Source: an uncultured Oscillospiraceae bacterium (GTDB lineage Bacteria; Bacillota; Clostridia; Christensenellales; CAG-138). Taken from it: DNA of 64,000 nt. The notes beneath the pieces are model-generated. The model made no database searches, was not told where the DNA came from, and saw nothing but the letters and a program-made list of their open reading frames with translations. The stretch is from positions 4,660 to 68,659 of the forward strand of contig CAZCAV010000004.1 in the NCBI GenBank assembly GCA_964496795.1. Reading direction: 5' to 3'. Positions 27,043-44,049 of the stretch are shown in pieces. The translations under genes were made by a program, and so were the position numbers. The first letter of the stretch is position 1; every line of letters starts with the position of its first letter.

Positions 27043-28449
27043 TCAGCCAAATTGTGCGTAGAGCTTTTCAAACAGATCGTCGCCAAAGCCGTCAAGTCCC
27101 GCATATACGGCGTTCAGGCGGCGATAGACGGCTGCGTTTGCGGGGTCAGGCAAAAAGGACGTCCCCGGGCGCGCCATGTTTTTGACAGCCGCGTCGAAAT
27201 CGGGCCACAGTCCAAGGCCGACCGCCGCGCAAACGGCGGCGCCAAGGCCGGCGCTCGCGTTTTCACCCGGCCGCGTCACGGGCCTGTTCAATACGTCGGC
27301 AAATATCTGCATAAACACGTCGCTTTTGGAACCGCCGCCGGAAATGCAGAAGCTTTCCACGCCCGCGTCGGCCGCGTCGATATGGTTTTTCATCGTCAGC
27401 GCGATGCCCTCCAGAATGGCGCGGTAAATGTGCGCGCGCCCGTGACGGCCGTCAAAGCCAAGCATCATGCCCTTTCGGCAGGGCTTATCCACCCCCGCCA
27501 GCCAGTGTGGAATGACGATCAGGCCGTCGCTGCCCGCAGGGACTCCCTCCGCCTCACGGTTGAGGTATTCCTCCGGACTGAGTCCCGAAGCGGCCGCGTT
27601 TTGGCGGAAGCCCGTCCCCAGTACGTCCGTCCACCACGAGAGCATCCACATGCCGCGCCGGATACCGTTCGTTTCATATAGATAGCGGCCGGGCACACAG
27701 GCCAGATTTGTCCAAAATGTATCGCAGTCGCCCGCGTTCATATCCGCGCAGGTCATCGCCGCGATATAGGTACCCAGCGAGATCAGCGCCATGCCGCTTT
27801 GAATGCAGCCTACGCCCAGCGCCTCGACGGCCTTGTCGTTGGCGGTGGCAAATACGGGAAGTCCCTCCGGCAGGCCGGTCGCTTTCGCCGCCTCCGCCGT
27901 CACCGCGCCCAGCTTATCGCCGGGCATGACCAGTTCAAACAGCATGGAGCGATCCGTACCGAAATCACGTATACCCTCCCCGTTCCAGCTCCATGTATCC
28001 CGATCGAGCGGCCAGGCGCCCAGATAGTTCGCCGCCGTATCGCGGTTTTCTCCCGTAAGGCGTTTGGTGATATAGCCGGAAGACGTCGTCACATACGCCG
28101 TGGAGGGATTGTCGTGCACATAGGGTCTTGACACGCGCGCATCCATCCAGCTCATAGCCGGCTGCGAAAGCGTCCCGTCCTTTTTTAGCAGGCAGCGGCA
28201 GAAGCGGATCGTACACAGTCCAAGACCCGCAATATCCGCGGGATCTCCGCTGAAATCGCGCATCAGGGCCTTGAGACCCGCGCACAGCGAATCCCAGAGG
28301 TCATCGTCCGGATGCTCCGCTGTACCGTCCGGCCCCAGGAGCATGGGTCTCAAGCGCACGCTGCTTGAGCACAGGATACTCCCCCGCTCGTCATATACGG
28401 CCGTCTTAACGCTCTGCGTTCCTTCGTCTACTCCGATAATCAGGCTCAC
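27043..28449 (-). CDS. FGGY-family carbohydrate kinase
   Basis: I moved the start to GTG 28449 (GTGA overlap with the SDR stop), which gives VSLIIGVDEGTQSVK. The C-terminal part has ISGGGSKSDVFMQIFADV. Confidence 0.85.
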   Translation of the reverse strand: MSLIIGVDEGTQSVKTAVYDERGSILCSSSVRLRPMLLGPDGTAEHPDDDLWDSLCAGLKALMRDFSGDPADIAGLGLCTIRFCRCLLKKDGTLSQPAMSWMDARVSRPYVHDNPSTAYVTTSSGYITKRLTGENRDTAANYLGAWPLDRDTWSWNGEGIRDFGTDRSMLFELVMPGDKLGAVTAEAAKATGLPEGLPVFATANDKAVEALGVGCIQSGMALISLGTYIAAMTCADMNAGDCDTFWTNLACVPGRYLYETNGIRRGMWMLSWWTDVLGTGFRQNAAASGLSPEEYLNREAEGVPAGSDGLIVIPHWLAGVDKPCRKGMMLGFDGRHGRAHIYRAILEGIALTMKNHIDAADAGVESFCISGGGSKSDVFMQIFADVLNRPVTRPGENASAGLGAAVCAAVGLGLWPDFDAAVKNMARPGTSFLPDPANAAVYRRLNAVYAGLDGFGDDLFEKLYAQFG

Positions 28450-29225
28450 CGCACCAAATACCCTCCATCCACCACCAGCAGCGTACCGTTGATATAATCG
28501 GAAGCGTGGGAAGCCAGGAACACCATCGCTCCCATAAGATCCAGGCGTTCGCCCCACCGGTCGGCCGGGATGTGCTCGCGAATGCGGCGGTCCTTGTCGG
28601 TGTCGCTGCTCGTCTGCTTTGTCAGCGCCGTCTTGAAATAGCCCGGCGCAAGCCCGTTGACCTGAATATTGTAGGCGCCAAGCTCGTCGGCATAGGCTTT
28701 TGTCAGGCCCATGAGTCCGGCCTTCATCGCCGCATAGGCCGGCGAGCCAAGACCGCCAAGAAACGAAAACAGCGAGCAGATATTGATGATCTTGCCGCTG
28801 CGCCGCGGCATCATATGCAGCGCGGCCTCATGCGAAAGCTCAAAGGCGCAATTCAGGTTGAGGTCGATCATGGGGTCCCACTCCCTGCGGGTAAAGCTTT
28901 CGACGTCCTTAATGATGCAGATGCCGGCGCAATTGACCAGTATATCCAGACTGCCGCAGTCGCCCGCGCAGCGATCCACGATCTGCCGGCATACGCCCTC
29001 TTTGGTGATGTCCGCCTGCATAAACGTATAGCGCACGCCCTCCGCCTCGACGAGCCGCCGCGTCGTACCGTCGTCGTCAACGATGCTTGGGCAGAAAATA
29101 TTGGCGCCCCCCTTGGCCAGCGCAAGCGCAAACGCCTGCCCCAGGCCAGAATTTCCGCCGGTAACGACCGCGTTTTTACCCTTTAGGGAAAAGAAGTCCA
29201 TATTGAAATCGGTAATGTTCGTCAT
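28446..29225 (-). CDS. Short-chain dehydrogenase/reductase (KduD / gluconate-5-dehydrogenase-like)
   Basis: The product has the cofactor motif VVTGGNSGLGQA and the catalytic YAAMK. Confidence 0.9.
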   Translation of the reverse strand: MTNITDFNMDFFSLKGKNAVVTGGNSGLGQAFALALAKGGANIFCPSIVDDDGTTRRLVEAEGVRYTFMQADITKEGVCRQIVDRCAGDCGSLDILVNCAGICIIKDVESFTRREWDPMIDLNLNCAFELSHEAALHMMPRRSGKIINICSLFSFLGGLGSPAYAAMKAGLMGLTKAYADELGAYNIQVNGLAPGYFKTALTKQTSSDTDKDRRIREHIPADRWGERLDLMGAMVFLASHASDYINGTLLVVDGGYLVR

Positions 29226-29240
29226 GATGCACGCCTCGCT

Positions 29241-30506
29241 TTATATGATTTTTTCCAATTCCTTCAGTATTTTTTCACAGTCGGATACGATCCCGTAATC
29301 TGCGCTGGCGAATATGGGAGCGTTTCGATCCGTATTCACAGCGATGACACGCGTGCAGCCGCCAAGCGCCGCCGCAAAGGCCGGAGCGCCGGACGCGCCG
29401 AATACGACGGCGGCGGCAGCCTCGGGCATAACGCCCGACACGCCCACCTGCGAGCTGACGCGGTACCATCCCTGCATCACGGCGGCGCGCGTAGCGCCAA
29501 GACCCGCGTCGAGCCGCGCGGCGATATTCGCGAGACTGGCGCGCGCGGCCGCGCCGCTCACGCCACGGCCGGCAATCAACAGTCTTTTTGCGCGGGCGAG
29601 CGTATGCGCCTGTATATCCGGCTTGGCATAATGCCCTGAGAGCCAGTCGCCCCGCTCAGAAAACGGTGCCAGCGAGGCGATCGGCTCGCGAAACACGGCT
29701 TTCATCGCGCCGCCATAGCATGGCCGTACGCAGGCGTTTTCAGCGGTCGCTCCCGTCTCGCCGCCGGCTTCATAAACAAGGCGCAAAAGCGTTTTTGCCT
29801 GCTGGCAGGCGTCGCCCTCCACCCATCGGCAGGGATCGCGCGGCGGCGGGGAGAGCAGCTTTTCCGGCTTGACGTCCTCCGCCCCGGGCAGGTCGCAGTC
29901 TATGACCGCGGCTTTTTTTCCGGCGGCGGCAAGCCTTGCGCGCAATGTCGGGATGCGCAGCCATCCGCCGTCTCCAACAAGCAGCACCGCTCTGCCGGAT
30001 ATAACGCCGCCAAGGATCGCGCCGTCTCCCGCCGCCTCAAAGCGTATACCCTCGGGCGCCGGCTCCAATCGATATGTCTTGTCCACATAGGGCGCGCCGA
30101 GCAAGTCGGCCAGATATCTTCCCGTCAACCGGCTGCCCGACAGTCCGCTTTGACATCCGATCAGCACCAGATCGGCGTCCTTCACGGCGGCGGAGAGAAG
30201 CTGAGCCTTTGCGCGGGGTGAAAATGGCGGCACGGCGCAGCTTAGCCGCGTTACCGTATCAAAGCCCAACGCAAACAGGCCGTCGTATATCCTGCCGTCG
30301 TCCACGCCCGAAACGGTGACCCCGTGCAGCCGCACCGAGCCCGCAGCGTCCTTTAACCGCAGCGCCAGCTCCAGAGCGCTTTCATCATAGGCGTCTATTA
30401 TACGGGAAAACAGGCCGGCCGGCTCCTCCTCTGGCTTTTGCGGCCAGCGAACCGTCCATGCGCCGGAAAGATCGGGCACGATTTGAAAGCAAACGTATAC
30501 ATCCAT
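29241..30506 (-). CDS. Single-chain ETF-like flavoprotein (ETF-beta-like N-half fused to the ETF-alpha FAD-binding C-domain)
   Basis: The N-half has ETF-beta-like motifs (VCFQIVPDL, DAYDESALELALRLKD, ADLVLIGCQS, LRIPTLRARLAAAGKK). The C-terminus has the ETF-alpha FAD domain (LGATRAAVMQGW ... VIAVNTDRNAPIFASADYGIV). Confidence 0.7.
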   Translation of the reverse strand: MDVYVCFQIVPDLSGAWTVRWPQKPEEEPAGLFSRIIDAYDESALELALRLKDAAGSVRLHGVTVSGVDDGRIYDGLFALGFDTVTRLSCAVPPFSPRAKAQLLSAAVKDADLVLIGCQSGLSGSRLTGRYLADLLGAPYVDKTYRLEPAPEGIRFEAAGDGAILGGVISGRAVLLVGDGGWLRIPTLRARLAAAGKKAAVIDCDLPGAEDVKPEKLLSPPPRDPCRWVEGDACQQAKTLLRLVYEAGGETGATAENACVRPCYGGAMKAVFREPIASLAPFSERGDWLSGHYAKPDIQAHTLARAKRLLIAGRGVSGAAARASLANIAARLDAGLGATRAAVMQGWYRVSSQVGVSGVMPEAAAAVVFGASGAPAFAAALGGCTRVIAVNTDRNAPIFASADYGIVSDCEKILKELEKII

Positions 30507-30515
30507 GACCGTATA

Positions 30516-31949
30516 TTACAGCAGCTTCTTCAGCTCCGCAATCTTTGCCTCTTCCTCTTCGCCGACTGTCTCGCCCGCACGCTTTTTGTCAAGATACGTC
30601 ATCAGTACCTCGTGACGCGCCCTGGTCAGCTGAAAGCGGCGCGCGACGACGATCGTCGGCACAAGCAGCACCAGCGCCGACAGGGCAATGATGCAGCGTA
30701 TGCCCATCAGCGCCGAAGCGGGCTGCGATACCCCCTCGGCGATCTGCTCGATATAGCCCGCCCAGCCCAATATCCAGCCGATCAGGAGACTGGCAAGCGC
30801 CGAGCAGAGCTTATACAAAAGCTGATTCACGCCGGAGAGCGTGCCCTCGGCGCGTTCTCCCGTAAACAGCTCGTTCGCATCCGTGGCTTCTCCGAACACG
30901 GATATACTCCCGATCAGCGCGAAGCTGATCGAAAAGCCCATGCAGGCGCCCAGGGCATACAGCAGCCAGGTCGGCGAGGCGGGCTGAATAACAAAGGTCA
31001 GCAGGCAGAATACGATCCACAGCACGCTGCCAAGCGCCACGCTGTCCGTCTTGCCCCGTCGGTTGCACACGCGCGTGGCCAGCGGTATGCCGGCGATCTC
31101 CGCAAGCAGCAGTACCCCCAGCACGATCGTCCCGTCCGCACGGCCCAGATAATCCTGCGTAAAATAGATAAACACCGTGGATACCACCGCCATTGTGATA
31201 TACACGCCAAGGTACATCCAGTTATACTGGCGAAAAGTCTTGACCCGCAGCGTAGCCCACATTTTCTTAAGAAGATCCCGGCCGTGCGCGTCGTAGGTGG
31301 AAACAAAATTTTCTGTTTCGCGCACATTGCGAAACGTTATGATATACGGCAGCGCAAAGAGCAGGCTGAACAAAACGCCCATGACAAAGTAGCCCATCCG
31401 GATATCCTTGAAGGCGGAATAAATGTAGTATGGCACCACTGCGCAGATCATTGAGGAAAACAGGCTGACAACCATTTCTACCGCAGTCAGTGAGTTGCGC
31501 TCGTTATAATCTGTCGTCAGCTCCGCGCGCATGGCCATAAACGGCACCTGCACCATCGTGGTCACCGTGTAGCAGAACATAAACGCCAGCGTGAAGTAGA
31601 CCGTTTTCCAGAGCTCGCTGTCTGCCTTCAGCGGAAACCATATCGCTGAAAATGAAAGTATGATCAGCGGAATGCCCAGCAAAAAGTACGGCCGCCGCCG
31701 GCCCCAGCGGCTGCGCGTTCTATCCGAGAGCATGCCCATCAGTGGGTCGGATACGGCGTCCCATACCTTCCCGATCGCCATGATGAGTCCCGCCTTAAAG
31801 GGGTTTATTCCCACGACAGAGGTCAAAAAATACAGATAAAAGAAAGCGATAACATTGTAGCAGCCGCCCGCATAGAAATCGCCCATCGCAAAGGACAGCT
31901 TAGTAGAAAGCTTTAACCCGGGAGAAGCTGTTTCCGTGTTTTTTTCCAT
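30516..31949 (-). CDS. Glycoside-pentoside-hexuronide (GPH) family cation symporter
   Basis: The 477-aa, ~12-TM product has the motif DAVSDPLMGMLSDRTRSRWGRRRPY. Confidence 0.85.
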   Translation of the reverse strand: MEKNTETASPGLKLSTKLSFAMGDFYAGGCYNVIAFFYLYFLTSVVGINPFKAGLIMAIGKVWDAVSDPLMGMLSDRTRSRWGRRRPYFLLGIPLIILSFSAIWFPLKADSELWKTVYFTLAFMFCYTVTTMVQVPFMAMRAELTTDYNERNSLTAVEMVVSLFSSMICAVVPYYIYSAFKDIRMGYFVMGVLFSLLFALPYIITFRNVRETENFVSTYDAHGRDLLKKMWATLRVKTFRQYNWMYLGVYITMAVVSTVFIYFTQDYLGRADGTIVLGVLLLAEIAGIPLATRVCNRRGKTDSVALGSVLWIVFCLLTFVIQPASPTWLLYALGACMGFSISFALIGSISVFGEATDANELFTGERAEGTLSGVNQLLYKLCSALASLLIGWILGWAGYIEQIAEGVSQPASALMGIRCIIALSALVLLVPTIVVARRFQLTRARHEVLMTYLDKKRAGETVGEEEEAKIAELKKLL

Positions 31950-31964
31950 GCTGTTCCCTCCCTT

Positions 31965-32010
31965 AATAAATGGAAAGCGCGGGAATCGGCCAAGGCCGAT
32001 TCCCGTGCGC
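31965..32010 (-). terminator. Strong hairpin plus T-rich tract after the opu-type operon
   Basis: On the minus strand, gcgcacgggaatcggcc-tt-ggccgattcccgcgc forms a stem of about 15 bp with one G-U pair. It is followed by tttccatttatt. Confidence 0.7.
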
Positions 32011-32030
32011 AGCAGTACAGCGTCATGTCA

Positions 32031-33023
32031 TCAGGGAACGAGGCCGACCTCCTTGAGCCAGGCGGCAGCCACATCCTCGGGCTCCTCTTCCTCAACGTCC
32101 ACCTTGTAGTTGAGCGCCATCATGACCTCGTCGTTAATCAGCGGTGCAATGTCGTTCATCAGCTTCACGACCTCGGGATACTGTGCGGCAAAGTCCGCGC
32201 GGAAGCAGGAAACGGCATTATATGCAGGGAAATAGCTGAGGTCGTCCACCAGCAGCACCAGATCGAAGGCTTTGATGCGGGAGTCGGTGGCGAACACCAT
32301 GCCGACGTCGCCCTGCCCGTCCTTCAGCGCCTGGAACACAAGTCCCATATCCATCACGTTCAGATCCTCGCCAAAATCAATGCCATAGGCGTCGGAAAGG
32401 CCAAGCAGACCGTCCTCGCGGATCGTGAACTCATGGTCGCCGCAGAATATCAGCTCGCCCGGATGCTCGGTCATATAGGCGCCCAGCTCCGAATAGCTGG
32501 TAATGCCCAGCGTGGCAACCTCCTGCGTGACGACGAGGCCATAGGTATCGTTCATGGTCATCATGTCGCCCACGGTATACTTGCCCTCGGCCGCAAGCGC
32601 CTCCGCAACGGAGGTATAGAGCGCATCCTTGCCTCCCTCCGGGAACGCCGAATTGCCTAAAAAGGAGCCCCAGATGGTGCCGGTGTAATCCCAGTACACG
32701 TCAAAATCGCCCGAACCAAGCGCGTTCCAGCAAACGTCAGAGCCGGATACGTTGGTTTTATCCTCGCAGACATAGCCCTTGGATTCAAGATACTGGATCG
32801 TGATCTGTCCAAGAAGCAGCTGTTCCGTGAAGTCCTTGGAGCCGACCTTGATGACGTCCGGCTTGGCGACCTCTTCCTCGGCGGCGGGTTCTTCCGTAGC
32901 AGGCTCGGTCGCGGGCGCTTCCGCAGCAGGCTCGGCGGCGGGCGCTTCGACAGTCTTGGCGCATCCTGCGATGCAGGCCATGAGCAGCAGTACGCTCAGC
33001 AGAATAGTGAAAGTCTTTTTCAT
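32031..33023 (-). CDS. Quaternary-amine (glycine betaine/choline/carnitine type) ABC transporter substrate-binding lipoprotein
   Basis: The product has the lipoprotein signal LLLMACIAGC. It has OpuBC/OpuCC-like sequence KVGSKDFTEQLLLGQITIQYLESKGY. Confidence 0.8.
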   Translation of the reverse strand: MKKTFTILLSVLLLMACIAGCAKTVEAPAAEPAAEAPATEPATEEPAAEEEVAKPDVIKVGSKDFTEQLLLGQITIQYLESKGYVCEDKTNVSGSDVCWNALGSGDFDVYWDYTGTIWGSFLGNSAFPEGGKDALYTSVAEALAAEGKYTVGDMMTMNDTYGLVVTQEVATLGITSYSELGAYMTEHPGELIFCGDHEFTIREDGLLGLSDAYGIDFGEDLNVMDMGLVFQALKDGQGDVGMVFATDSRIKAFDLVLLVDDLSYFPAYNAVSCFRADFAAQYPEVVKLMNDIAPLINDEVMMALNYKVDVEEEEPEDVAAAWLKEVGLVP

Positions 33024-33086
33024 GGGTTCCCTCCTAATTTTAATTTGGCTGTATATTATGGGCGACGACGCCCATGGGCCACAGAT

Positions 33087-33815
33087 TCATTGGATGAGCT
33101 TTTTTTCCGCCATGCCCAGCAGGCTGTCAAGCACGAGGGCTAAAATCGTAGCGTATCCCGCGCCGAGCAGCATGATCTGATAGCGCATATAGTTCTTGCC
33201 CGCGATAATAAAATCGCCAAGTCCGCCCGCGCCGACAAAAGCCGCGATGATGGCGGTAGCCACATTGATGACGACCGCTGTGCGTATGCCGGCAAAAATG
33301 ACCGGCATGGCCAACGGGACCTCCACCCGAAACAGCAGCTGCAGCTTCGTCATGCCCATGCCGCGGCCGGCGTCGATGATGAAGGGGTCTACGCCGCGTA
33401 TGCCCGCGATCGTGTTGTTCAAGATCGGCAGCAGCGAATAGATCCACAGTGCAAATATCGCGGTTTTTGCGCCGATACCAAGCACCGAGAACATGATGGC
33501 TACGACCGCGAAGCTCGGAATGGTCTGTAATATGCTCACAAGCCCCACGACAGGCCCGCAAAGCGGTTTGAACAGCGGGCGCGTGAGCAGCAGTCCAAGC
33601 GGCACCGCCGTCACCACGGCCAGCGACGCGGAGATCACGATGATGTAGATGTGCTGCCACAGAGCATGCAGGAGCTTCTTCGTGCTGATGTATCTTGCGA
33701 CCGTTTGATCCATCGGATGGTTGATGACCCACCAGCCCCAGATAATGGCGATCACAACGAGCACAATCGGCAGACACCATTCATACCATGCGATTTTCTT
33801 GTTATTCTGCAACAT
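33087..33815 (-). CDS. Quaternary-amine ABC transporter permease
   Basis: The start is ATG 33815 (MLQNNKKIAWYEW), which overlaps the ATPase 3' end by 14 nt. The product is polytopic. Confidence 0.8.
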   Translation of the reverse strand: MLQNNKKIAWYEWCLPIVLVVIAIIWGWWVINHPMDQTVARYISTKKLLHALWQHIYIIVISASLAVVTAVPLGLLLTRPLFKPLCGPVVGLVSILQTIPSFAVVAIMFSVLGIGAKTAIFALWIYSLLPILNNTIAGIRGVDPFIIDAGRGMGMTKLQLLFRVEVPLAMPVIFAGIRTAVVINVATAIIAAFVGAGGLGDFIIAGKNYMRYQIMLLGAGYATILALVLDSLLGMAEKKLIQ

Positions 33816-34908
33816 GGCTGGCCCCCGTATCAAACAGCTCTGCCATGCCGATGAGCCGTTTCGCCTTCTTCTCCGCATCCACGATGAACACGACCTTTTC
33901 GTTGCGGGCGAACATCAGGCTCATGGCGTCGTACAGCGTCTGGTCCTCCTGTATCATGGCGTCCGTGTGCGTCAGGGCGGCGTCCACGTCCGCAGCGCTG
34001 CCAGGATGCGTACAGCCGGTCTCAATATAGCCAAGGGGATGGCCGTCGGCGTCCGTCACGCCGACAAAGGTATTCGTTTCGGCGGCCTTGAGTATCCGCT
34101 CCGTTTCCGCAATGCAAAAGAAGGGTTCGGAGCCGTTAGCCTCCGCGCAGGACATCAGAGAAAAGCGCTTGATGATGCGGTTCTGGCCGACAAGGCTTTC
34201 CACAAATTCGTTGGCTGGGTGCGTCAGTATCTCGTGCGGCGATCCGACCTGCGCAAGCCGTCCATACTGCATCACGGCGATCTTGTCGCCCATCTTGACC
34301 GCCTCGTCCATGTCGTGCGTGACAAAGACGATGGTCTTGTGCAGCTTTGCCTGGATATTGTTCAGAAACTCGCTCTGGAGGCGGCTTCTTGTGATCGGGT
34401 CCAGCGCGCCGAAGGGCTCGTCCATCAGCATGATCGGCGGATCGCCCGCCAGCGCGCGCGCAACGCCTACGCGCTGCTTCTGACCGCCGGAAAGCGACGA
34501 CGGCTTCTTTTTTGCATAGGCAGGGTCCAGATCCACCAGCCGCATCATCTCCGCGACCCGCGCGGCAATGCGCGCCTTGTCCCATTTCTTTTCGATCGGA
34601 ACCGTCGCGATGTTCTTCTCGATCGTATAATGGGGGAACAGGCCCGTCTCCTGGATCACATAACCGATATTGCGCCGAAGCTCAATGGGATCAAGAGCCA
34701 TGATATCCTGCCGGTTGACAAAAATCTTTCCGTCCGTAATGGGCACCAGCCGGTTGATCATGCGCATCGTGGTCGTCTTGCCGCAGCCAGACGCGCCGAT
34801 CAGCACGCATATCTCGCCTTCGTTGATGGTCAGATTCAAGTCGTTCACGACAGGCTTGTCGCTGCCCGGATAGGTTTTGACCAGATGCTCCATGCGAATC
34901 ATTTCCAT
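33802..34908 (-). CDS. Quaternary-amine ABC transporter ATP-binding protein with C-terminal CBS pair
   Basis: The product has Walker A GASGCGKTT, the signature LSGGQKQR, and a C-terminal ~120 aa CBS-like region, as in OpuA/OpuC ATPases. Confidence 0.9.
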   Translation of the reverse strand: MEMIRMEHLVKTYPGSDKPVVNDLNLTINEGEICVLIGASGCGKTTTMRMINRLVPITDGKIFVNRQDIMALDPIELRRNIGYVIQETGLFPHYTIEKNIATVPIEKKWDKARIAARVAEMMRLVDLDPAYAKKKPSSLSGGQKQRVGVARALAGDPPIMLMDEPFGALDPITRSRLQSEFLNNIQAKLHKTIVFVTHDMDEAVKMGDKIAVMQYGRLAQVGSPHEILTHPANEFVESLVGQNRIIKRFSLMSCAEANGSEPFFCIAETERILKAAETNTFVGVTDADGHPLGYIETGCTHPGSAADVDAALTHTDAMIQEDQTLYDAMSLMFARNEKVVFIVDAEKKAKRLIGMAELFDTGASHVAE

Positions 34909-34923
34909 AGCTATTTCGCCTCC

Positions 34924-35565
34924 TCAGGATATCCGTTTTTCAGATGCGCGCTGCACGATCTGCAGCAGCTTATCCACAATGATGGTCAGCAGCGCGATGA
35001 GTATGCCGGCCACCGCTACCATTTTCATATTGCCGCGGTTGATGCCCTGAAAGATGTACACGCCGAGCCCGCCCGCGCCGACGTACGCCGCGATGGCGCC
35101 TATGCCTATGCACAGCACGACGGCCGAGCGAATGCCCGCAAAAACGACCGGCAGCGCCAGCGGAAAGCGAACCCGCAGATTGATCTCCATTTCCGTCAGG
35201 CCCATCCCGCGCGCCGAATCGATCACTGCCGGATCGATGTTCGTCAGGCCCACATAGGTATTGCGTATGATCGGCAGCAATGAATAGATGACAAGGCCGA
35301 ATATAACGGGAGATTTATTCAGTCCCATGATCGGAACCAGGAACGAGAACAGCGCCAGGCTCGGCACCGTCATAAATATACTGGCAATGTACAGCACGAT
35401 GGTCGCGACCGCCTTATTGTAGGTGATCAGAAATCCGACGATCAGTCCGATCGCAATGGATATGGCCAGCGCGATGAGCACCAGCTCGCAATGCTCCCTG
35501 AGCATCATGAGTATCTTGTCGGATTTCTTCACAACAAAAGCGAAAAACTCCTGTATCTTTTCCAA
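34924..35565 (-). CDS. Quaternary-amine ABC transporter permease
   Basis: The product is 213 aa, polytopic, and paralogous to 33087..33815. Confidence 0.85.
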   Translation of the reverse strand: MEKIQEFFAFVVKKSDKILMMLREHCELVLIALAISIAIGLIVGFLITYNKAVATIVLYIASIFMTVPSLALFSFLVPIMGLNKSPVIFGLVIYSLLPIIRNTYVGLTNIDPAVIDSARGMGLTEMEINLRVRFPLALPVVFAGIRSAVVLCIGIGAIAAYVGAGGLGVYIFQGINRGNMKMVAVAGILIALLTIIVDKLLQIVQRASEKRIS

Positions 35566-35598
35566 CAGCTCACCCCCTGCCTGTGTTCAGGCGTCGCT

Positions 35599-37038
35599 TC
35601 AATACCGCTTGCTTGGGAATATGACGCCTTCGTTCATGATCCCGTTCGGATCGAATTGCCGTTTGAGCCCCTCAAGCAGCATATAGGCGCTGCCATGCTC
35701 CTGCGCCGTCCATTCCGCCCGCGCCTTGCCGATGCCGTGATGGTGCACCATGGAGCCGCCGCGCTTGAGCGTTTCCTCCACAATGATGCGGTTGATTGGC
35801 TCATGATACTTATGGATCTCCTCGGTAACGGACGCGTTGACATTGTAATAGTAGACGAAATACATGTTCGTGCCGTTGATATAGCTATGTGAGGAATGGC
35901 CCCCGCAGAGCGTGATATCCGGCACCTCCTCCGGTATGCGCTTCACGCAGGCCCTGTATATATTGGCGATTTCCGACCATCCGGCCGATATCTCCGTTGT
36001 AAAGCCCATGTTGTTCGTTTCCTTGATCTCTTCGATCTCCTCGGCGATCTTGGCGGGGTCCCAGTTGAGATTGTTGAACCAATGCTCGATATATTCCGCC
36101 TCCACCGGCCGCCCGCCGCCGGAAAGGACAATATCGTCTATGGCGCGTATGGTGGCCTCGGAGATCGGCATGGGGCCCTCGGTCACGAATATCAGCACGC
36201 AGTTTCCCGTTTCAAAATTCGAGAAATGATAATCGCCGTCCTGCACGTCGTAAAGTCTGGCCACGGAGGGGCGATACCCGTTTACCATGACCTCCCTGAG
36301 CATACGAAAGCCCGTTTCCATATCGTCTATCAGATACCCGCGCGTACGGTAGCTCTCCGGAAAGAAGCGATGGATCTTGAGCGTGACCTCGGTGATAAAG
36401 CACAGCGCGCCCTCGCTGCCGATGATGATATGCCGGATATCCGGCCCCGCCGCCCGGCGCGGCACGCTCTTGATGCGCGCGACCTCCCCGTTTGGGAACA
36501 CTGCCTCAAGGCCGGCGACCATGTCCTCTATGCCCCCGTACAGCGTGGAAAACTGTCCAATGCTGCGTGTGGCCACAAGTCCGCCAAGCTGCGCAAGCGG
36601 CTTGGACTGCGGCGAATGGCCCGTGGTATAGCCATGCTCCCGCAAAAAATCCTCCAGCGTTTCAAGCGGGCAGCCGCACTGCGCCGTCACCTGCATATTC
36701 TCCGGATCAAACAGGAGTATGCGGTTCATATCGGAGCCGTCCAGCACCACGCTGTCGGGCGCAAGCGTTTCCAGCCCGCCCTCGGTGGCGGACGCGCCCG
36801 TGCGCGGCACGCAATTGATCCCGTTTTTGTTCAGGTACCGCAGGATCGCGGACACCTGTTCCACAGAATCCGGACGCACCAGACAGGCGGGAACGGGGCG
36901 CGTGTATACGCCGTGTATCCACTGATACTTTCTGAAGCGATCCACGCTCGCCTGCCTGAGCACCTCTTCATCCGTTACGACCCGATCCTCCCCCACGAGG
37001 GCGACAAGGTCGACGACAATCTGTTCATGCTTTGTCAT
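35599..37038 (-). CDS. FAD-binding (PCMH-type) oxidoreductase, GlcD / alkyl-DHAP-synthase-like
   Basis: The track ORF is trimmed to ATG 37038 (MTKHEQIVVDLVALVG), preceded by AGGAG. The FAD-binding N-domain has PRTGASATEGG. Confidence 0.8.
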   Translation of the reverse strand: MTKHEQIVVDLVALVGEDRVVTDEEVLRQASVDRFRKYQWIHGVYTRPVPACLVRPDSVEQVSAILRYLNKNGINCVPRTGASATEGGLETLAPDSVVLDGSDMNRILLFDPENMQVTAQCGCPLETLEDFLREHGYTTGHSPQSKPLAQLGGLVATRSIGQFSTLYGGIEDMVAGLEAVFPNGEVARIKSVPRRAAGPDIRHIIIGSEGALCFITEVTLKIHRFFPESYRTRGYLIDDMETGFRMLREVMVNGYRPSVARLYDVQDGDYHFSNFETGNCVLIFVTEGPMPISEATIRAIDDIVLSGGGRPVEAEYIEHWFNNLNWDPAKIAEEIEEIKETNNMGFTTEISAGWSEIANIYRACVKRIPEEVPDITLCGGHSSHSYINGTNMYFVYYYNVNASVTEEIHKYHEPINRIIVEETLKRGGSMVHHHGIGKARAEWTAQEHGSAYMLLEGLKRQFDPNGIMNEGVIFPSKRY

Positions 37039-37073
37039 ACTGCATCTCCTGAATTTCATGATGGCGCCGGAGT

Positions 37074-37862
37074 TTATACATGGCCGTAATAATCCCTGTG
37101 ATTGACTGCAGAATACGCGTAATCCAGCAGCGTCCCCCAGCTGAATACGGGAAGCTCCACCGCGCGCTGCACCGCGCGCGCAAAGGGCTGCATGCCGGTA
37201 CATTCGAGCATGATGGCGCCGATATCCCGCTCTTTTTCCACAAAGCGGCGCGCACAGCTTACCATCTGCTCCTCCGCCCTGTCGTAATAGGCCTCCGGAC
37301 ACGCCGGACGTTTCTCCGGATTCCACAGGTTGTCAAATTCCGTTACGCCGTATTCGTCCTGCGCGCCGGCGATCACATACCGGCTCTTAGGATCGATCCC
37401 GACGTTTATCAGGTGCTGCGCGCTTAAAAACTGCTTCTGCGCGCAGATGATGCCCACGCGTTTTTCGGGGCCGATGACCTGCTGGATAAACGGCACCTGC
37501 AAAAGACTGGACATGAAAACCGGAACGTTCACCGCCGCCGCCACGTCCTTCTGAAAAAAGGCGAAATACCCGCATTCGGCGGCGACGGCACGGCAGCCCA
37601 GCCGTTCAAGCTTTCTGGCCGCGCGGACGACGGCCTCGCGGCACTGCGCGGGGTTCTTATCATACACAAGCGTCTGGTTCGTTACGCCCTCGGCAATTTC
37701 ATATTGTATCGGATAGGGAAAGGCGCTTGGGTTCCGTACATCGCCCGGAAAGCCCGGGTAGGCGTCGTTGAGTAAAATAATGCCCAGGCCCATGCCATAA
37801 CAAACATGATCCCCTCTGGTTCTGATATAGTTGATGCTGCGATCCCTGTCCTGCCAGTACAT
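37074..37862 (-). CDS. Asp/Glu/hydantoin-racemase superfamily protein
   Basis: The start is ATG 37862, preceded by GGAGG. The product has GIILLNDAYPGFPGDVRNPSAFPYPIQY and AIMLECTGM, recognised from memory of this family and not aligned. Confidence 0.6.
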   Translation of the reverse strand: MYWQDRDRSINYIRTRGDHVCYGMGLGIILLNDAYPGFPGDVRNPSAFPYPIQYEIAEGVTNQTLVYDKNPAQCREAVVRAARKLERLGCRAVAAECGYFAFFQKDVAAAVNVPVFMSSLLQVPFIQQVIGPEKRVGIICAQKQFLSAQHLINVGIDPKSRYVIAGAQDEYGVTEFDNLWNPEKRPACPEAYYDRAEEQMVSCARRFVEKERDIGAIMLECTGMQPFARAVQRAVELPVFSWGTLLDYAYSAVNHRDYYGHV

Positions 37863-37863
37863 G

Positions 37864-37913
37864 ATTGCCGACCTCCATATTATATTGCCGACCCGATGTC
37901 TTGATTGCCGAAC
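37864..37913. repeat. Three direct repeats ATTGCCGA(C/A)C phased exactly 20 bp apart in the divergent promoter region
   Basis: The copies are at 37864-37873 and 37884-37893 (both attgccgacc) and at 37904-37913 (attgccgaac). Confidence 0.9.
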
Positions 37914-37972
37914 ATTGTTGTGGTATACTGTCATCAAGCTTATAAATATTAATAGGAAACGGATGCGATACA

Positions 37973-38761
37973 ATGGATACTAAGGATACCGTCGTCACCG
38001 GCAGGAGCGCCGGCACTGAGCCTTCCGTGCAGTCCATCGAGCGGGCGGTCGCCATACTGCGCTGCTTCGAAAAGGGTTCCAAGCTTACGCTGACCGAGAT
38101 CTGCGCTGCGGTGGGTCTGCACAAATCCACCACCTACGGGATCGTTACGACGCTGAAAAACAGCGGTCTGCTGGATAAAAACGAGGAAACCGGCAAATAT
38201 CAGCTTGGAGTCGGCCTGTACAGGCTGGTAGCCAACGTGGAGCTGGATCTGCGCGACGTCTGCGTCCCGCATATTCGCAGTCTCTGTGAAACCACCGGCG
38301 AAACCGTGAATATGGTCGTTCCGGACGGAACGCATGTGATCTATATCGAAAAGCGCGAAAGCGCGCATTCGGTACGCATCAGTACCAGCATCGGAAAAAG
38401 ACTGCCCATGTACTGCACGGCGGTCGGCAAAGCCATACTTTCGTGCATGTCGCCCGAGGAGGCGTCCCTGCTGCTGGATCGAACCAGCCTTGTCCCCCAG
38501 ACGCGGTTTACGCTGACCGGAAAAGACGATATTCTGCGTCAGCTTGTCGAAGTACGGGAACGTGGCTATGCTTTGGATAGTGAAGAATTGGAATATGGCC
38601 TGGTATGCGTAGCCGTTCCCATTGTCAATGCGCACGGCGTTCCGATCGCCGCCTTGAGCTGCTCCGGCCCCATACAGCGGATGAGCGAGGAAAGGATCAA
38701 CGTCATTTCGCAGGAGCTGCTTGCGCACGCGCATGCCGTTTCCGCAGTGTTGCTGCATTGA
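37973..38761 (+). CDS. IclR-family transcriptional regulator
   Basis: The product has the HTH region LTLTEICAAVGLHKSTTYGIVTTL and a C-terminal effector domain. Confidence 0.85.
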   Translation: MDTKDTVVTGRSAGTEPSVQSIERAVAILRCFEKGSKLTLTEICAAVGLHKSTTYGIVTTLKNSGLLDKNEETGKYQLGVGLYRLVANVELDLRDVCVPHIRSLCETTGETVNMVVPDGTHVIYIEKRESAHSVRISTSIGKRLPMYCTAVGKAILSCMSPEEASLLLDRTSLVPQTRFTLTGKDDILRQLVEVRERGYALDSEELEYGLVCVAVPIVNAHGVPIAALSCSGPIQRMSEERINVISQELLAHAHAVSAVLLH

Positions 38762-38773
38762 CCGGCCCGCGCT

Positions 38774-38790
38774 GTTCTGCATTATAGAAC
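38774..38790. promoter_or_regulatory. 17-bp palindrome GTTCTGCATTATAGAAC (operator candidate, copy 1)
   Basis: The sequence is read directly. It lies 13 nt after the iclR stop. Confidence 0.5.
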
Positions 38791-38925
38791 AATGTGCTGT
38801 TATATTTGAACAAATATTGCCGTCGCGCGGGGGCGCTGTTTCTTAAGTCGTTTTTATTATAAAGCGTCAAAGCGCGTTTGTAAAGCAAAACAAAAGTATT
38901 TTATTGGATTTTTTTCATTTTCCTC

Positions 38926-38954
38926 TTGAACTGGCCGTCGGCACGCGCTATAAT
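38926..38954 (+). promoter_or_regulatory. Sigma-A-type promoter for the panB-mttB arm
   Basis: The elements are TTGAAC, a 17-nt spacer and TATAAT. Confidence 0.55.
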
Positions 38955-38977
38955 TGCCTTGTCAATTATCGTACATC

Positions 38978-38994
38978 GTTCTGCATTACAGAAC
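38978..38994. promoter_or_regulatory. 17-bp palindrome GTTCTGCATTACAGAAC (operator candidate, copy 2)
   Basis: This copy matches copy 1 at 16 of 17 positions. It lies 24 nt downstream of the predicted -10. Confidence 0.5.
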
Positions 38995-39053
38995 TTCCAG
39001 CCGTGTCACAAGTATCCTCGCGCCCCATGCAAATCTATCAGGAGGATGAACCC

Positions 39054-39899
39054 ATGAAAAAATCAATTCTCGACTTCAATAAGATGAAGACCGCCGGAGA
39101 AAAGCTTACATGGATTACCGCCTATGACGCGCCCTTTGCTTCCTTCGCGGAGCAGGCCGGCATGGACATGATTCTTGTGGGCGATTCGCTCGGCATGGTG
39201 GTGCTTGGTTACGAAAGCACCATTCCCGTGACCATGGACGACTGCATCGCTCACTGCAAGGCGGTGCGCAGGGGCGCGCCCGGCACCTTTGTCGTAGGCG
39301 ATATGCCCTTTGGCTCCTATCAGGAATCCAGGGAGAGCGCGGTGCACAACGCCGTACGGTTTTTAAAGGAGGGCGGCTCGGACGCCGTCAAGCTTGAGGG
39401 AGGTGTGCGCGTGGCCGAGCAGATCCGCGCCATACGCGACGCCGGCGTGCTCGTCTGCGGGCACATCGGCTTAACGCCGCAAAGTTCGGGCGTGCTCGGC
39501 GGTCATAAAGCGCAGGGCCGCACCCTAGAAAGCGCGCGTGCCGTGATCGAGGACGCTCTGGCCGTAGAGAACGCCGGCGCCAATTTCCTGCTTGTGGAGG
39601 CTGTGCCGCCGGAGGTCGCCGGATTCATAACCAGAAAGCTGAAAATCCCCGTGTATTCCATCGGCGCCGGTGCGGAATGCGACGGCCAGCTGACCATTTT
39701 CGCGGACACGATCGGTCTGTTCCAGGCGTTTACCCCCAAATTCGTCAAAAAGTACTGCGAGATCGCGCCCATCGTGATCGACGCTTACAAGCAATACATT
39801 CGCGATATCCGCGAAGGAAGCTTTCCCGGCGAAGACAACGTCTATCATATCATAGGCGAGCGCGCCCCCTTTGAAGAGCTGTTTCGCGAGTACGAATAA
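39054..39899 (+). CDS. panB: 3-methyl-2-oxobutanoate hydroxymethyltransferase (PanB) homologue
   Basis: The start is ATG 39054, after CAGGAGG. The product has LTWITAYDAPFASFAEQAGMDMILVGDSLGMVVLGY and VVGDMPFGSYQ, typical of PanB. Confidence 0.8.
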   Translation: MKKSILDFNKMKTAGEKLTWITAYDAPFASFAEQAGMDMILVGDSLGMVVLGYESTIPVTMDDCIAHCKAVRRGAPGTFVVGDMPFGSYQESRESAVHNAVRFLKEGGSDAVKLEGGVRVAEQIRAIRDAGVLVCGHIGLTPQSSGVLGGHKAQGRTLESARAVIEDALAVENAGANFLLVEAVPPEVAGFITRKLKIPVYSIGAGAECDGQLTIFADTIGLFQAFTPKFVKKYCEIAPIVIDAYKQYIRDIREGSFPGEDNVYHIIGERAPFEELFREYE

Positions 39900-39931
39900 T
39901 TTTCAATAATATATTCAGGAGGAAAGCAATC

Positions 39932-41143
39932 ATGACCAACATGGAATATCTCAAGGATAAGCCCATCGCCGTGCTTGGCGGAGGCAACGTGGCCAAGGCG
40001 ATCGCCGGCGACTGCGCGCTCGGCGGCGCGCGGGTCCGTATCTGCGACCTCATGCCCTTTGCAGCGAACTCGCTGCGTAACCTTGACAAGGCGGGCATTC
40101 GCTTCTACGGGGAGCAGATGAACCTCTACGGCTTCCAGCGCGAGGGCGTCGCTATGATGGACAAGGTGACCACGGAGGTTTCCGAAGCCGTCAAGGGCGC
40201 GGGCATCATCATCATTGGCACGCCCGTGTTCGGGCACCGTCCGTTCTTTGAAAGGCTTATTCCGCTGCTCGAGGACGGGCAGGTCGTTATGATATTCCCC
40301 GATAATTTTGGATCGCTGCTGCTGCATAAAATGATGCGCGAGGCGGGCTGCACCAAAAAAGTCATTATCGGCGGATGGTCCAGCTCCACCTACGGCAGCC
40401 GCATCGACATGGCCGGAAAGCTGCCCACCAACCGCGTCAAGGTCTATTACCGCGCCATCACGCTGCGCGGCGCGGCCATGCCCGCCTCCGATACGCCCGC
40501 TTTCATCGAAGCGTCCAGATATCTGCCCTCCTTCGACGCGGTCACCTTCGGCAACGGCCCCGTTGCGGCGGATACGGCGCTGGATACCGCGCTTTCCAAC
40601 GTCAATCCCGTGCTGCATTGCCCCGGCACCATACTCGGCATCTCCACGATGCAAAACTATGGCCGGATATTCGGCGACGACAAGAAAAAATTCTCCATCT
40701 ATTCCCACGCCTACTGCGAGGGGATTTCACAGGTGCAGTTCAGTTTCTATCAGGAGGAATGCGCGCTGGCCAAGGCTATGGGCGTCGGCATTCAGCCCTA
40801 TGAAAAGGAGCATTTCTTCTCTCGCGAAAACGTTCTTGGGCAGGAGTATATGGGTCTGGATTACGTCATTCCGTTCGACGAGCAGGATCCCATTCAGTAC
40901 GGTACGGGCCCGTTCACCATGGAAAACCGCTACATCACCGAGGATATCCCCACGGGCTGCAATCTGTACAGTCAGCTCGGCCGTCAATACGGCGTGAGGA
41001 CGCCCGTCATCGACTGCATGATCACGCTCGCGGAAGCGATACTGGATCGCGATCTGGTCAGCACGGGCTATACGCTCAAGGATCTCGGCATCGACAATAT
41101 GAGCAAGGACCGTTTGAACGAATATCTGCGCACGGGCAAATAA
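39932..41143 (+). CDS. NAD(P)-dependent opine (octopine/nopaline) dehydrogenase-family protein
   Basis: The 403-aa product has the Rossmann start KPIAVLGGGNVAKAIAGDCALGG. Its overall layout resembles the opine-DH family by eye. Confidence 0.6.
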   Translation: MTNMEYLKDKPIAVLGGGNVAKAIAGDCALGGARVRICDLMPFAANSLRNLDKAGIRFYGEQMNLYGFQREGVAMMDKVTTEVSEAVKGAGIIIIGTPVFGHRPFFERLIPLLEDGQVVMIFPDNFGSLLLHKMMREAGCTKKVIIGGWSSSTYGSRIDMAGKLPTNRVKVYYRAITLRGAAMPASDTPAFIEASRYLPSFDAVTFGNGPVAADTALDTALSNVNPVLHCPGTILGISTMQNYGRIFGDDKKKFSIYSHAYCEGISQVQFSFYQEECALAKAMGVGIQPYEKEHFFSRENVLGQEYMGLDYVIPFDEQDPIQYGTGPFTMENRYITEDIPTGCNLYSQLGRQYGVRTPVIDCMITLAEAILDRDLVSTGYTLKDLGIDNMSKDRLNEYLRTGK

Positions 41144-41153
41144 GGAGGCCGCT

Positions 41154-42587
41154 ATGAAGGATCGCAAGGAATATGACGTCGAACGCAATATCGAATTCAA
41201 TATCCTCACGCCGGACATGAAGGAAAAGATCCATCAGGGCGCGCTGCAGATACTGGAAGAGATCGGCATGAAGATCTCCGGCGACAGAACGCTCCAAAAG
41301 CTAAGAGAGCGGGGCGTAACGCCCGACGCCGACGGACTCGTGCACATTCCCCGTTCCCTGTTCTTCTGGGCGCTTGAAAAGGCGCCCAAGGAGCTGACCC
41401 TGTATGACATGGACGGCAAGCCGCGTATGCAGATCGACAGCCGAAACCGGGTATATTTCGGCACCCATAACGATATGGCCGAGATCCTCGACTATAAAAC
41501 CAATACGGCCAGGCCGATGCTGCTGTCCGATATCCAGACCATGTGCAAGGTGGCCAGCAACTGCGAGAATATCGATTTTGTTCTCTCCGTCGGACTGGTC
41601 CAGGACGTGGACCCGAAGATCCAATCCCAGATGTGCTTTATCGAGTCCTGCAAATATATGGAGAAGGTCATCAACTTCTCCACCAACGACGTGGACGCTC
41701 TGCAGGAGATCATCGACATCGCGGCCGTGCTCGCAGGCGGGCATGACAAGCTGGCTCAAAAACCGTTCATCTTCAACTATTGCGAGCCGATCCCGCCGCT
41801 CACGCATCCCTTTGAGAGCACGGAAAAGCTGTTCGTCGCGTCCTCGAACGGAATCCCCTCCGTCTACATGCCCTACTGCATGATGGGCGGCACTTCGCCG
41901 CTCGACCGGCCTACGACGCTGGCGCAGTGCTTTGCGGAGATCCTCTGCGGCGTGGTCATCTCCCAGCTTGCCCGCGAGGGCGCGCCCTTCATCGCCGGCT
42001 CCATGCCGTCGGTCATCGACATGAAAACCACTGTGGCCAGCTATGCCGCTCCGGAATTCCATCTCATGGTCGCCGCCTCCTCGGAGATGGCGGATTTCTA
42101 CGGCCTGCCGTTTTACGGAACCTGCGGCTGCAGCGACGTGCGCACCTTCGATCAGCAATCCGCCGGAGAGATATCCTATCAGATCCTGTCCACGCTTCTG
42201 AGCAAGGCCAACATCATTCACGATATGGGCCTGCACGATCATTGTATCAACGTCAGCCCCGCGGCGGTCGTCTGGGCCAACGATCTGATCAACGGCTATA
42301 AAAGCTATGTACGCGGCGTGCAGGGCGAGGTGGACATATCTCTGATCAAGGACGTAGGGCCTGCGGGAAACTATCTGTCGGAGGATAACACGCTGGAACG
42401 GTTCCGCGAGGTATGGTATCCCGAGCTGGAAACGCGCCGCCGGCAAAACCTCAACTTCTCCGACCTGTGCGATCGGATCGGCGCGCGCATCGACCGGATG
42501 CTGGAGGAGAATCCCGGTTCCGGCCTCAGCGCAGATCAGCTCGCCTTCCTGGATCAAAAAGCGAAAGAATTCTTATCGCGCGTATAG
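41154..42587 (+). CDS. MttB-superfamily (trimethylamine-methyltransferase-like) protein, non-pyrrolysine
   Basis: The 477-aa frame is uninterrupted. The N-terminus (ILTPDMKEKIHQGALQILEEIGMKI) is typical of the family. The RBS is AAGGAGG. Confidence 0.8.
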   Translation: MKDRKEYDVERNIEFNILTPDMKEKIHQGALQILEEIGMKISGDRTLQKLRERGVTPDADGLVHIPRSLFFWALEKAPKELTLYDMDGKPRMQIDSRNRVYFGTHNDMAEILDYKTNTARPMLLSDIQTMCKVASNCENIDFVLSVGLVQDVDPKIQSQMCFIESCKYMEKVINFSTNDVDALQEIIDIAAVLAGGHDKLAQKPFIFNYCEPIPPLTHPFESTEKLFVASSNGIPSVYMPYCMMGGTSPLDRPTTLAQCFAEILCGVVISQLAREGAPFIAGSMPSVIDMKTTVASYAAPEFHLMVAASSEMADFYGLPFYGTCGCSDVRTFDQQSAGEISYQILSTLLSKANIIHDMGLHDHCINVSPAAVVWANDLINGYKSYVRGVQGEVDISLIKDVGPAGNYLSEDNTLERFREVWYPELETRRRQNLNFSDLCDRIGARIDRMLEENPGSGLSADQLAFLDQKAKEFLSRV

Positions 42588-42597
42588 GGAGCAGCTC

Positions 42598-44025: not shown

Positions 44026-44049
44026 AGTATGCGATAAAGAGGGCTCTGC

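Follow-up and report, generated by a model that had tools for sequence, protein, structure and literature searches.

Within a 64,000-nucleotide stretch of DNA from an uncultured Oscillospiraceae bacterium (GenBank assembly GCA_964496795.1, contig CAZCAV010000004.1; the whole stretch is hereafter called the window), the gene at positions 29241-30506 encodes an electron-transferring flavoprotein (ETF), designated P0001. This protein is a rare one-chain ETF, wherein the whole beta subunit (EtfB) is followed, in the same polypeptide, by no more of the alpha subunit (EtfA) than its flavin-binding domain. At a probability of roughly 0.68, P0001 is interpreted as a natural single-polypeptide, two-domain ETF that would serve as the dedicated one-electron acceptor of a YgcU-type dehydrogenase, encoded in a catabolic island of the ygc type.

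ETFs had been known only as heterodimers until 2025, when SaETF from Sulfolobus acidocaldarius became the first biochemically characterised monomeric representative, and the accompanying survey covered only proteins of 592-656 aa (PMC12042025). While fused ETFs are thereby known already, a fused form devoid of EtfA domain I appears from sequence comparison to be a new variation; literature searches for single-chain or truncated ETFs returned nothing beyond SaETF and yielded no account of a form lacking domain I. To our knowledge, the ETFs characterised so far all possess three domains.

Architecture and predicted fold of P0001

The initial annotation had recognised an EtfB-like half fused to the EtfA domain that binds flavin adenine dinucleotide (FAD) from five short motifs, all of which were located in the translation (residues 38-53, 111-120, 183-198, 336-347 and 387-407), and the fusion itself is now backed by sequence, profile, tree and predicted structure. 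Pfam assigns PF01012 (ETF) to residues 36-159 (E 1.5e-10; 41.7 bits against a curated cut-off of 26.7) and PF00766 (ETF_alpha) to residues 303-380 (E 1.4e-13; 51 bits against a curated cut-off of 27); because PF01012 is one Pfam family that covers both EtfB and EtfA domain I, this pair alone cannot distinguish a fusion from a normal EtfA. In phmmer searches of PDB sequences, residues 32-231 and 3-192 matched the EtfB chains 5ow0_B and 4kpu_B, respectively, and residues 274-420 matched the C-terminal part of EtfA chains (human 1efv_A, 168-311), with E values of 5e-16 to 7e-15 for domain II against the human and Paracoccus proteins; no match of P0001 to any EtfA N-domain was returned by these searches. 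NCBIfam models divide the protein into the same EtfB and EtfA parts.

The AlphaFold2 model of P0001, computed as a monomer from a 110-sequence alignment, has a mean predicted local distance difference test score (pLDDT) of 95.8, a predicted template modelling score (pTM) of 0.93 and no segment below a pLDDT of 50. Residues 1-249 of the model superpose in VIA-align on the whole EtfB chain 5ow0_B of G. metallireducens (1-250 of 251; Z 25.6, root-mean-square deviation 2.7 A, 244 residues aligned), similar values being obtained for human, A. fermentans and further EtfBs, and Foldseek gives a target-normalised TM-score of 0.82 against EtfB. The partner-recognition loop of the P-R-x-x-T-L type is present as L183-R-I-P-T-L188, is invariant among the P0001-like proteins (the mini family described below) and corresponds in the alignment to that of FixA, YdiQ and YgcR; the loop is presumably equivalent to the one around human Leu195. 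The region between the two halves, described at the outset as a linker of ~85 aa, is mostly not a linker, as residues ~200-249 form the EtfB arm and residues 260-272 a hairpin of domain I; what stands of that description is a short connector before domain II, which begins at residue ~290.

The absence of the EtfA N-terminal domain, likewise proposed initially, is borne out by profile-profile comparison. When the mini family (A1) was aligned with 30 standalone EtfAs (A3) using hhalign, columns 256-426 of the former corresponded to columns 125-319 of 335 in the latter (probability 100%, E 3.4e-46), and EtfA columns 1-124, the bulk of domain I, had no counterpart in the mini family. Of this Rossmann-like domain of ~190 aa, P0001 therefore keeps a single hairpin, V260-R-P-C-Y-G-G-A-M-K-A-V-F272, which is the exact start of the hhalign alignment and fits both the EtfA consensus tRkvYGGnleaeF and IRPAFGGNIMAQI of LctC from A. 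woodii. R261, Y264, G265 and G266 of the hairpin do not vary among the four family members that were aligned. In EtfA of R. palustris, the conserved domain-I Arg (R165) reaches the phosphate of the FAD or adenosine monophosphate (AMP) bound in domain III, and both nucleotide binding and folding depend on it (PMC8958531); judging by motif alignment and spacing, R261 is most likely its counterpart.

The FAD-site residues of domain II are also invariant (T339-R340, S357, G370-A374, N391/D393 and D403-Y404-G405), with T339-R340 aligned to human S248-R249 and S357 to human T266. The positions of human Q285-H286 are occupied by A376-F377, a trait that extends across the subfamily (GASGAAAL in YgcQ). 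Residues 230-421 of the model additionally match, in VIA-align, the FAD-binding middle domain of thiamine diphosphate enzymes, a likeness of ETF domain II that has been described before.

With canonical ETFs, such as human ETFA/ETFB (1EFV) and the G. metallireducens protein (5OW0), P0001 shares the folds of domains III and II, the FAD-site Arg, Ser/Thr and N-x-D motifs, and the recognition loop; it differs in that one chain takes the place of two, a 14-residue hairpin that of the full domain I, and A-F that of Q-H, and in that its AMP loop has diverged. SaETF resembles P0001 in the order of EtfB and then EtfA within a single polypeptide, but it comprises all three domains, contains two FADs and is reduced by NADH (PMC12042025), whereas P0001, at 421 aa, lacks domain I and the loop of the bifurcating (Bf) type and falls short of the ~590-660 aa, with all three domains, that typify SaETF-like proteins.

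Mini-ETF relatives and the extent of domain I

A search of 1.84 billion cluster representatives recovered four clusters (P0002, P0003, P0028 and P0029) of full-length relatives, 422-431 aa long, together with one fragment, and a further mini-ETF (P0004) was obtained from a 90%-identity collection. These five other mini-ETF clusters are 41-47% identical to P0001 in the alignment, and the mini-ETF clusters together account for ~25 contigs. The four aligned mini-ETFs are conserved end to end, the junction included (R261, Y264-G266 and W288). An origin of the fusion by misassembly or frameshift was ruled out by the presence of the same architecture in six clusters. No further mini-ETF was found among 845 related genomes, including 40 relatives of the bacterium, 399 genomes of its class and 400 genomes of its order, and scans of genome contigs and metagenome contigs yielded solely split etfB and etfA relatives, with no second mini form.

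When all fused ETF hits were scored against an EtfA profile of 322 positions, the extent of domain I was found to vary with protein length. Among fusions of 570-650 aa, several match the full EtfA profile (from position 2-3 to ~320) and others begin between positions ~16 and 70; those of 500-532 aa mostly begin at positions ~15-86, with part of domain I missing; most of those of 437-484 aa keep a fragment within positions ~65-156 in addition to domain II; and all members of the 421-431-aa class match positions 166-322 only. Read in this order, the profile matches mark the mini-ETFs of 421-431 aa as the probable end point of a wider trend of domain-I loss.

Other variants of EtfA organisation were encountered in the same searches. 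The fusions of 500-532 aa (P0034-P0066 and P0005) constitute a larger, apparently undescribed class of EtfB-EtfA fusion from which the first ~15-85 domain-I residues are missing. Truncation of domain I without fusion is seen in standalone EtfA-like proteins of 224-272 aa that begin with Met (P0057, P0068, P0061, P0096, P0103, P0092 and P0072) and have ~70-130 residues before domain II, although some of these could be miscalled starts. Lastly, five relatives contain open frames of 604-665 aa with an EtfA C-terminal domain (G004:C9, G007:C3, G015:C36, G016:C20 and G035:C243); the G004 frame follows a separate 274-aa EtfB-like frame, and such frames may be EtfAs fused to something else.

In an EtfB tree of 96 rows with FixA/YdiQ as the root, all six mini sequences fall into a single clade (Shimodaira-Hasegawa-like approximate likelihood-ratio test, SH-aLRT, 98), which is nested in a 14-row clade (SH-aLRT 99) with standalone EtfBs and one 484-aa fusion. 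The 14-row clade groups in turn with EtfBs of ygc operons, including E. coli YgcR, at moderate support only (SH-aLRT 88). A separate clade (SH-aLRT 99) holds 20 of the 23 fusions of 500-535 aa, and several fusions of 596-638 aa fall among the ygc-operon EtfBs. Given that the tree places the fusions in separate clades, fusion and domain-I loss would have arisen more than once in the YgcR/YgcQ-type lineage, to which P0001 most likely belongs. P0001 and YgcQ both carry a GASGA-A-(L/F) flavin motif in place of QH; they differ in that E. coli has two genes and its YgcQ (286 aa) keeps domain I, whereas P0001 is one chain without it.

The ygc-type neighbourhood and the candidate donor

The neighbours named in the initial annotation, a GPH symporter, a KduD-like short-chain dehydrogenase/reductase (SDR) and an FGGY kinase, were confirmed by family searches, and the orthologues of YgcU, YgcW and YgcE lie with the ETF gene on one strand within 10.3 kb (Table 1). 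The sugar-gene setting of an ETF had initially been regarded as unexpected, a view that is not upheld by comparison with E. coli K-12: the annotated record gives the map ygcN-ygcO-ygcP / ygcQ-ygcR-ygcS-ygcU-ygcW / yqcE-ygcE, such that the E. coli counterparts of the window's genes adjoin ygcR/ygcQ. P0001 shares 35% identity with YgcQ in its C-terminal half and 29% with YgcR in its N-terminal half.

A metagenome scan gave 53 loci, the gene content of which was established by BLAST of their open reading frames (ORFs). The order (ygcP)-ygcW-ygcE-ygcU-etfB-etfA is seen in ~40 metagenome contigs, in which ygcU directly precedes etfB-etfA, often overlapping etfB by a few bases, and the ETF is always split (EtfB ~260-275 aa, EtfA ~315-332 aa). 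The two nearest named genomes are metagenome-assembled genomes of Clostridia in which split etfBA has a YgcU homologue beside it or close by. Locus L023, like the window, has a GPH homologue after its ETF genes, downstream of etfA. Because ~40 contigs carry ygcW-ygcE-ygcU-etfB-etfA, an ETF within the ygc gene set is the rule rather than an anomaly, and on gene content the locus is taken to be the anaerobe version of the functionally uncharacterised E. coli ygc cluster; literature searches on the ygc genes returned promoter and regulon surveys only, with no functional study. The two clusters share the YgcU/YgcW/YgcE gene set and differ in their remaining members. YgcN/YgcO (FixCX-like) and the GlpP-like antiterminator YgcP (query, E. 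coli YgcP) belong to the E. coli cluster and were not found in the bacterium's own genome, which is metagenome-assembled and 74% complete, and the E. coli ygc transporters are of the MFS type, as opposed to the GPH symporter and OpuA ABC importer encoded here. YgcP is present in most metagenome ygc loci; neither YgcN nor YgcO was found in those loci, and they may therefore not be core outside Enterobacteria.

Several ygc-type loci possess a second ETF gene or pair (L037 2428-4328, L025 2502-3524, L032 8094-9095 and L059 9347-10396). The second EtfB of L037 has a DGDTAQVGP loop, which suggests a bifurcating type there, where P0001 has SGLSGSRLTG instead. In addition, a divergent FAD_binding_4/FAD-oxidase_C protein lies directly after etfA in L016 (11775-13220), L017 (11748-13196), L037 (11681-12889), L062 (11749-13152) and L029 (11777-13333).

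The redox partner had been considered unknown, a position overtaken by the recognition of the YgcU orthologue as an obvious electron donor candidate. The nearest solved relatives of YgcU are AGPS (alkyl-dihydroxyacetone phosphate synthase; 5e-44), a glycolate oxidase, LctD (4e-24), D2HGDH and D-lactate dehydrogenase, and several enzymes of this group pass electrons to ETFs. LctD, the dehydrogenase of the Ldh-EtfAB complex of Acetobacterium woodii (LctBCD, 7QH2), is a FAD dehydrogenase of the VAO/PCMH type that is related to YgcU and works with its own ETF; LctBC, however, is a bifurcating/confurcating three-domain heterodimer with a ferredoxin domain, and YgcU is nearer AGPS than LctD. The bacterium's own genome contains one ETF gene, P0001 being its sole PF01012 gene, and three FAD_binding_4 genes, two of them within the window, which represent the only recognised class of ETF donor there. 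The initial observation that the window lacks a second ETF gene and an acyl-CoA dehydrogenase thus extends to the whole 74%-complete genome.

Recurrent companions of ygc-ETF clusters include relatives of the OpuA-type importer (14 loci), BCCT transporters (11), MttB methyltransferases (7), a PanB-like gene (4; 64% identity), an opine-dehydrogenase-like gene (3; 62%) and the racemase of the window (1; 80%). Loci with such linkage include L016, L017, L020, L024, L031, L034, L037, L044, L062 and L065; as many loci are near-duplicates, the independent linkage count is lower than these raw counts. Because Opu genes recur beside ygc-ETF clusters, those between ygcU and the ETF gene are viewed as regular companions rather than an insertion, and the ygc module and the betaine/MttB module (32031-45450) seem, by gene linkage, to form one catabolic island.

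The genes around the ETF are closely spaced: 9 nt separate the GPH stop from the ETF ATG, which has no clear Shine-Dalgarno sequence, and 15 nt separate the ETF stop from the SDR ATG, which is preceded by a GCGAGG ribosome-binding site. The longest-ORF call over-extends two of the genes, as the FGGY kinase likely begins at a GTG at 28449 that overlaps the SDR stop (GTGA), and the YgcU orthologue most likely begins at ATG 37038, with an AGGAG ribosome-binding site, rather than at the head of the 575-aa ORF, the excess spanning 37038-37326. The intergenic hairpin and T-rich tract possibly act as a leaky terminator or attenuator and, given that they sit just before the GPH ribosome-binding site, GPH-ETF-ygcW-ygcE is a candidate for transcription by read-through and may be read through from the ygcU-opu unit.

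Table 1. Single-chain ETF gene, its parts and the neighbouring features, in window positions
Feature	Positions	Strand	Basis
Single-chain ETF gene (P0001), 421 aa	29241..30506 (stop codon included)	minus	ORF list, translation, Pfam ETF and ETF_alpha, AlphaFold2
Residues 1-249, complete EtfB equivalent (domain III and C-terminal arm), with LRIPTL loop at 183-188	29760..30506	minus	VIA-align, Foldseek, tree
Residues 259-272, hairpin, sole remnant of EtfA domain I	29691..29732	minus	hhalign, EtfA consensus, LctC
Residues 290-421, EtfA domain II (FAD-binding head domain)	29244..29639	minus	PF00766, phmmer, hhalign
YgcE orthologue, FGGY kinase	27043..28449	minus	48% identity over 468 aa to E. coli YgcE
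YgcW orthologue, KduD-like SDR	28446..29225	minus	63% identity over 259 aa to E. coli YgcW
GPH/MFS_2 cation symporter	30516..31949	minus	PF13347 E 2e-74, TIGR00792
Intergenic hairpin (11-bp stem), then T-rich tract, then GPH ribosome-binding site	31950..32030	minus	Sequence read
OpuA-type ABC importer (binding protein, two permeases, ATPase), between ygcU and GPH-ETF	32031..35565	minus	Pfam OpuAC, BPD_transp_1, ABC_tran
YgcU orthologue, AGPS-like FAD-linked dehydrogenase, 479 aa, ATG 37038	35599..37038	minus	64% identity over 477 aa to E. coli YgcU

Proposed function and competing explanations

The function proposed for P0001, including its flavin content, its partner, the direction of electron flow and the presence of an acceptor, is deduced from the architecture, homology, fold, conservation and gene linkage described above. 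The catabolic island would comprise the transporter, the YgcW dehydrogenase, the YgcE kinase, the YgcU oxidase and the ETF. The recognition loop derived from EtfB (LRIPTL, 183-188) would dock on the dehydrogenase, and the mobile domain II, carrying the electron-transfer FAD, would swing this flavin to that of the donor and then to the acceptor, with the kept Arg hairpin probably clamping an AMP-like nucleotide in domain III. P0001 would accordingly be a carrier with a single FAD. The Bf-FAD site of bifurcating ETFs lies at the interface of domains I and III (PMC12042025, PMC8958531), and no second FAD site of this type was recognised in P0001, in which domain I is absent and the loop diverged; because domain I and the DGDTAQVG loop are both missing, P0001 should not bifurcate.

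Certain observations weigh against this interpretation. The domain III nucleotide loop of P0001 (QSGLSGSRLTG) matches neither the AMP-type motif nor the DGDTAQVG motif of the Bf-FAD type, R261 is equated with R165 of R. palustris by motif alignment and spacing, and the flavin environment must differ from that of characterised ETFs because A-F replaces Q-H. The gene linkage is likewise looser than in the metagenome contigs, as ygcU is not adjacent to the ETF gene here and lies ~5 kb upstream, with four transporter genes and the hairpin between, and the linkage of the mini form to ygcU is known from this one window. Furthermore, none of the acceptors sought in the 74%-complete genome (FixC/YgcN, a CCG-domain protein and an acyl-CoA dehydrogenase) was found there.

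Rival accounts of the protein itself fare less well. That P0001 is an ordinary EtfA with an N-domain resembling EtfB, the true etfB lying elsewhere, would agree with a Pfam pair identical to that of normal EtfA and with the incompleteness of the genome; this account is scarcely credible given that the N-half spans the whole EtfB chain, arm and recognition loop included, and is nested among EtfBs in the tree, that the EtfA-derived part starts at column 125, and that the genome has no other PF01012 gene. As the combination of an ordinary EtfA with an etfB nearby was thus sought and not found, the fusion stands. It is also highly improbable that P0001 is an electron-bifurcating ETF with two FADs: although its N-terminal VCFQIVPD resembles a VCxKQVPD motif that we take to be that of FixA-type or bifurcating EtfBs, and the Arg hairpin that contacts the Bf-flavin is kept, the DGDTAQVG loop has given way to SGLSGSRLTG. 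The loss of ~125 residues from a domain that no characterised ETF lacks and the want of a clear Shine-Dalgarno sequence could be taken to indicate a decaying, non-functional remnant of a fused etfBA. Such decay is very unlikely in light of six clusters that, at 41-47% identity, keep their length and the invariant residues of the FAD site, recognition loop and hairpin, and of a gene that has no internal stops, encodes a very confidently predicted fold and is packed tightly between intact genes in a manner suggestive of translational coupling.

The oligomeric state and the identity of the donor each admit a more serious alternative. Without domain I, the face that domain III normally buries against it would be exposed, and domains I and III, which belong to the one family PF01012, jointly form the base of canonical ETFs (PMC12042025); in a homodimer, domain III of a second chain could replace the lost domain I to give a pseudo-symmetric base with two FAD heads, and EtfA domain-I structures do still superpose on the N-half of P0001 (3ih5_B, Z 17.6). 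The monomer model is already very confident, however, and the kept hairpin hints that part of the exposed surface is covered by the chain itself, so that a homodimer is considered unlikely. With respect to the donor, the window encodes a second FAD_binding_4 oxidase, a GlcD-like FAD oxidase of the betaine/MttB module (44050-45450), that might reduce P0001 instead of, or in addition to, YgcU. In typical ygc clusters, the gene immediately after etfA encodes a second FAD-linked oxidase, and Opu/BCCT, MttB, PanB-like and opine-dehydrogenase-like genes recur beside ygc-ETF clusters. The window's second oxidase lies on the other strand, ~14 kb away, and is only 28-31% identical to the post-etfA oxidases, on which ground it was set aside as their orthologue; the adjacency of ygcU and etfB is, moreover, the most constant link found. 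The GlcD-like oxidase is accordingly regarded as a doubtful donor, if somewhat less so than the homodimer as an assembly, and the YgcU orthologue is retained as the favoured candidate.

The base formed by domains I and III has been considered a requirement of folding and nucleotide binding and, where the ETF bifurcates, of the second flavin. A broader and more tentative proposal, to which we would give slightly less than even odds, is that domain I of ETFs is dispensable, domains III and II with a single Arg hairpin sufficing for a fully functional single-FAD carrier, and that the YgcR/YgcQ-type lineage shed domain I repeatedly, as represented by standalone EtfAs (224-272 aa), by fusions (437-532 aa) and by the 421-aa end point, with the minimal form perhaps homodimerising. 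The minimal working ETF would be defined by a conserved natural protein in which the Arg hairpin is all that is left of domain I, and P0001 would offer a small, monomeric scaffold of 46 kDa for studies of head-domain motion and partner docking. The recurring Opu/BCCT and MttB linkage of ygc-ETF clusters narrows the search for the substrate of the pathway. Finally, P0001 would tie the orphan ygc pathway, which E. coli shares with many anaerobes of gut and sediment, to a redox pair composed of an AGPS-like dehydrogenase and an ETF.

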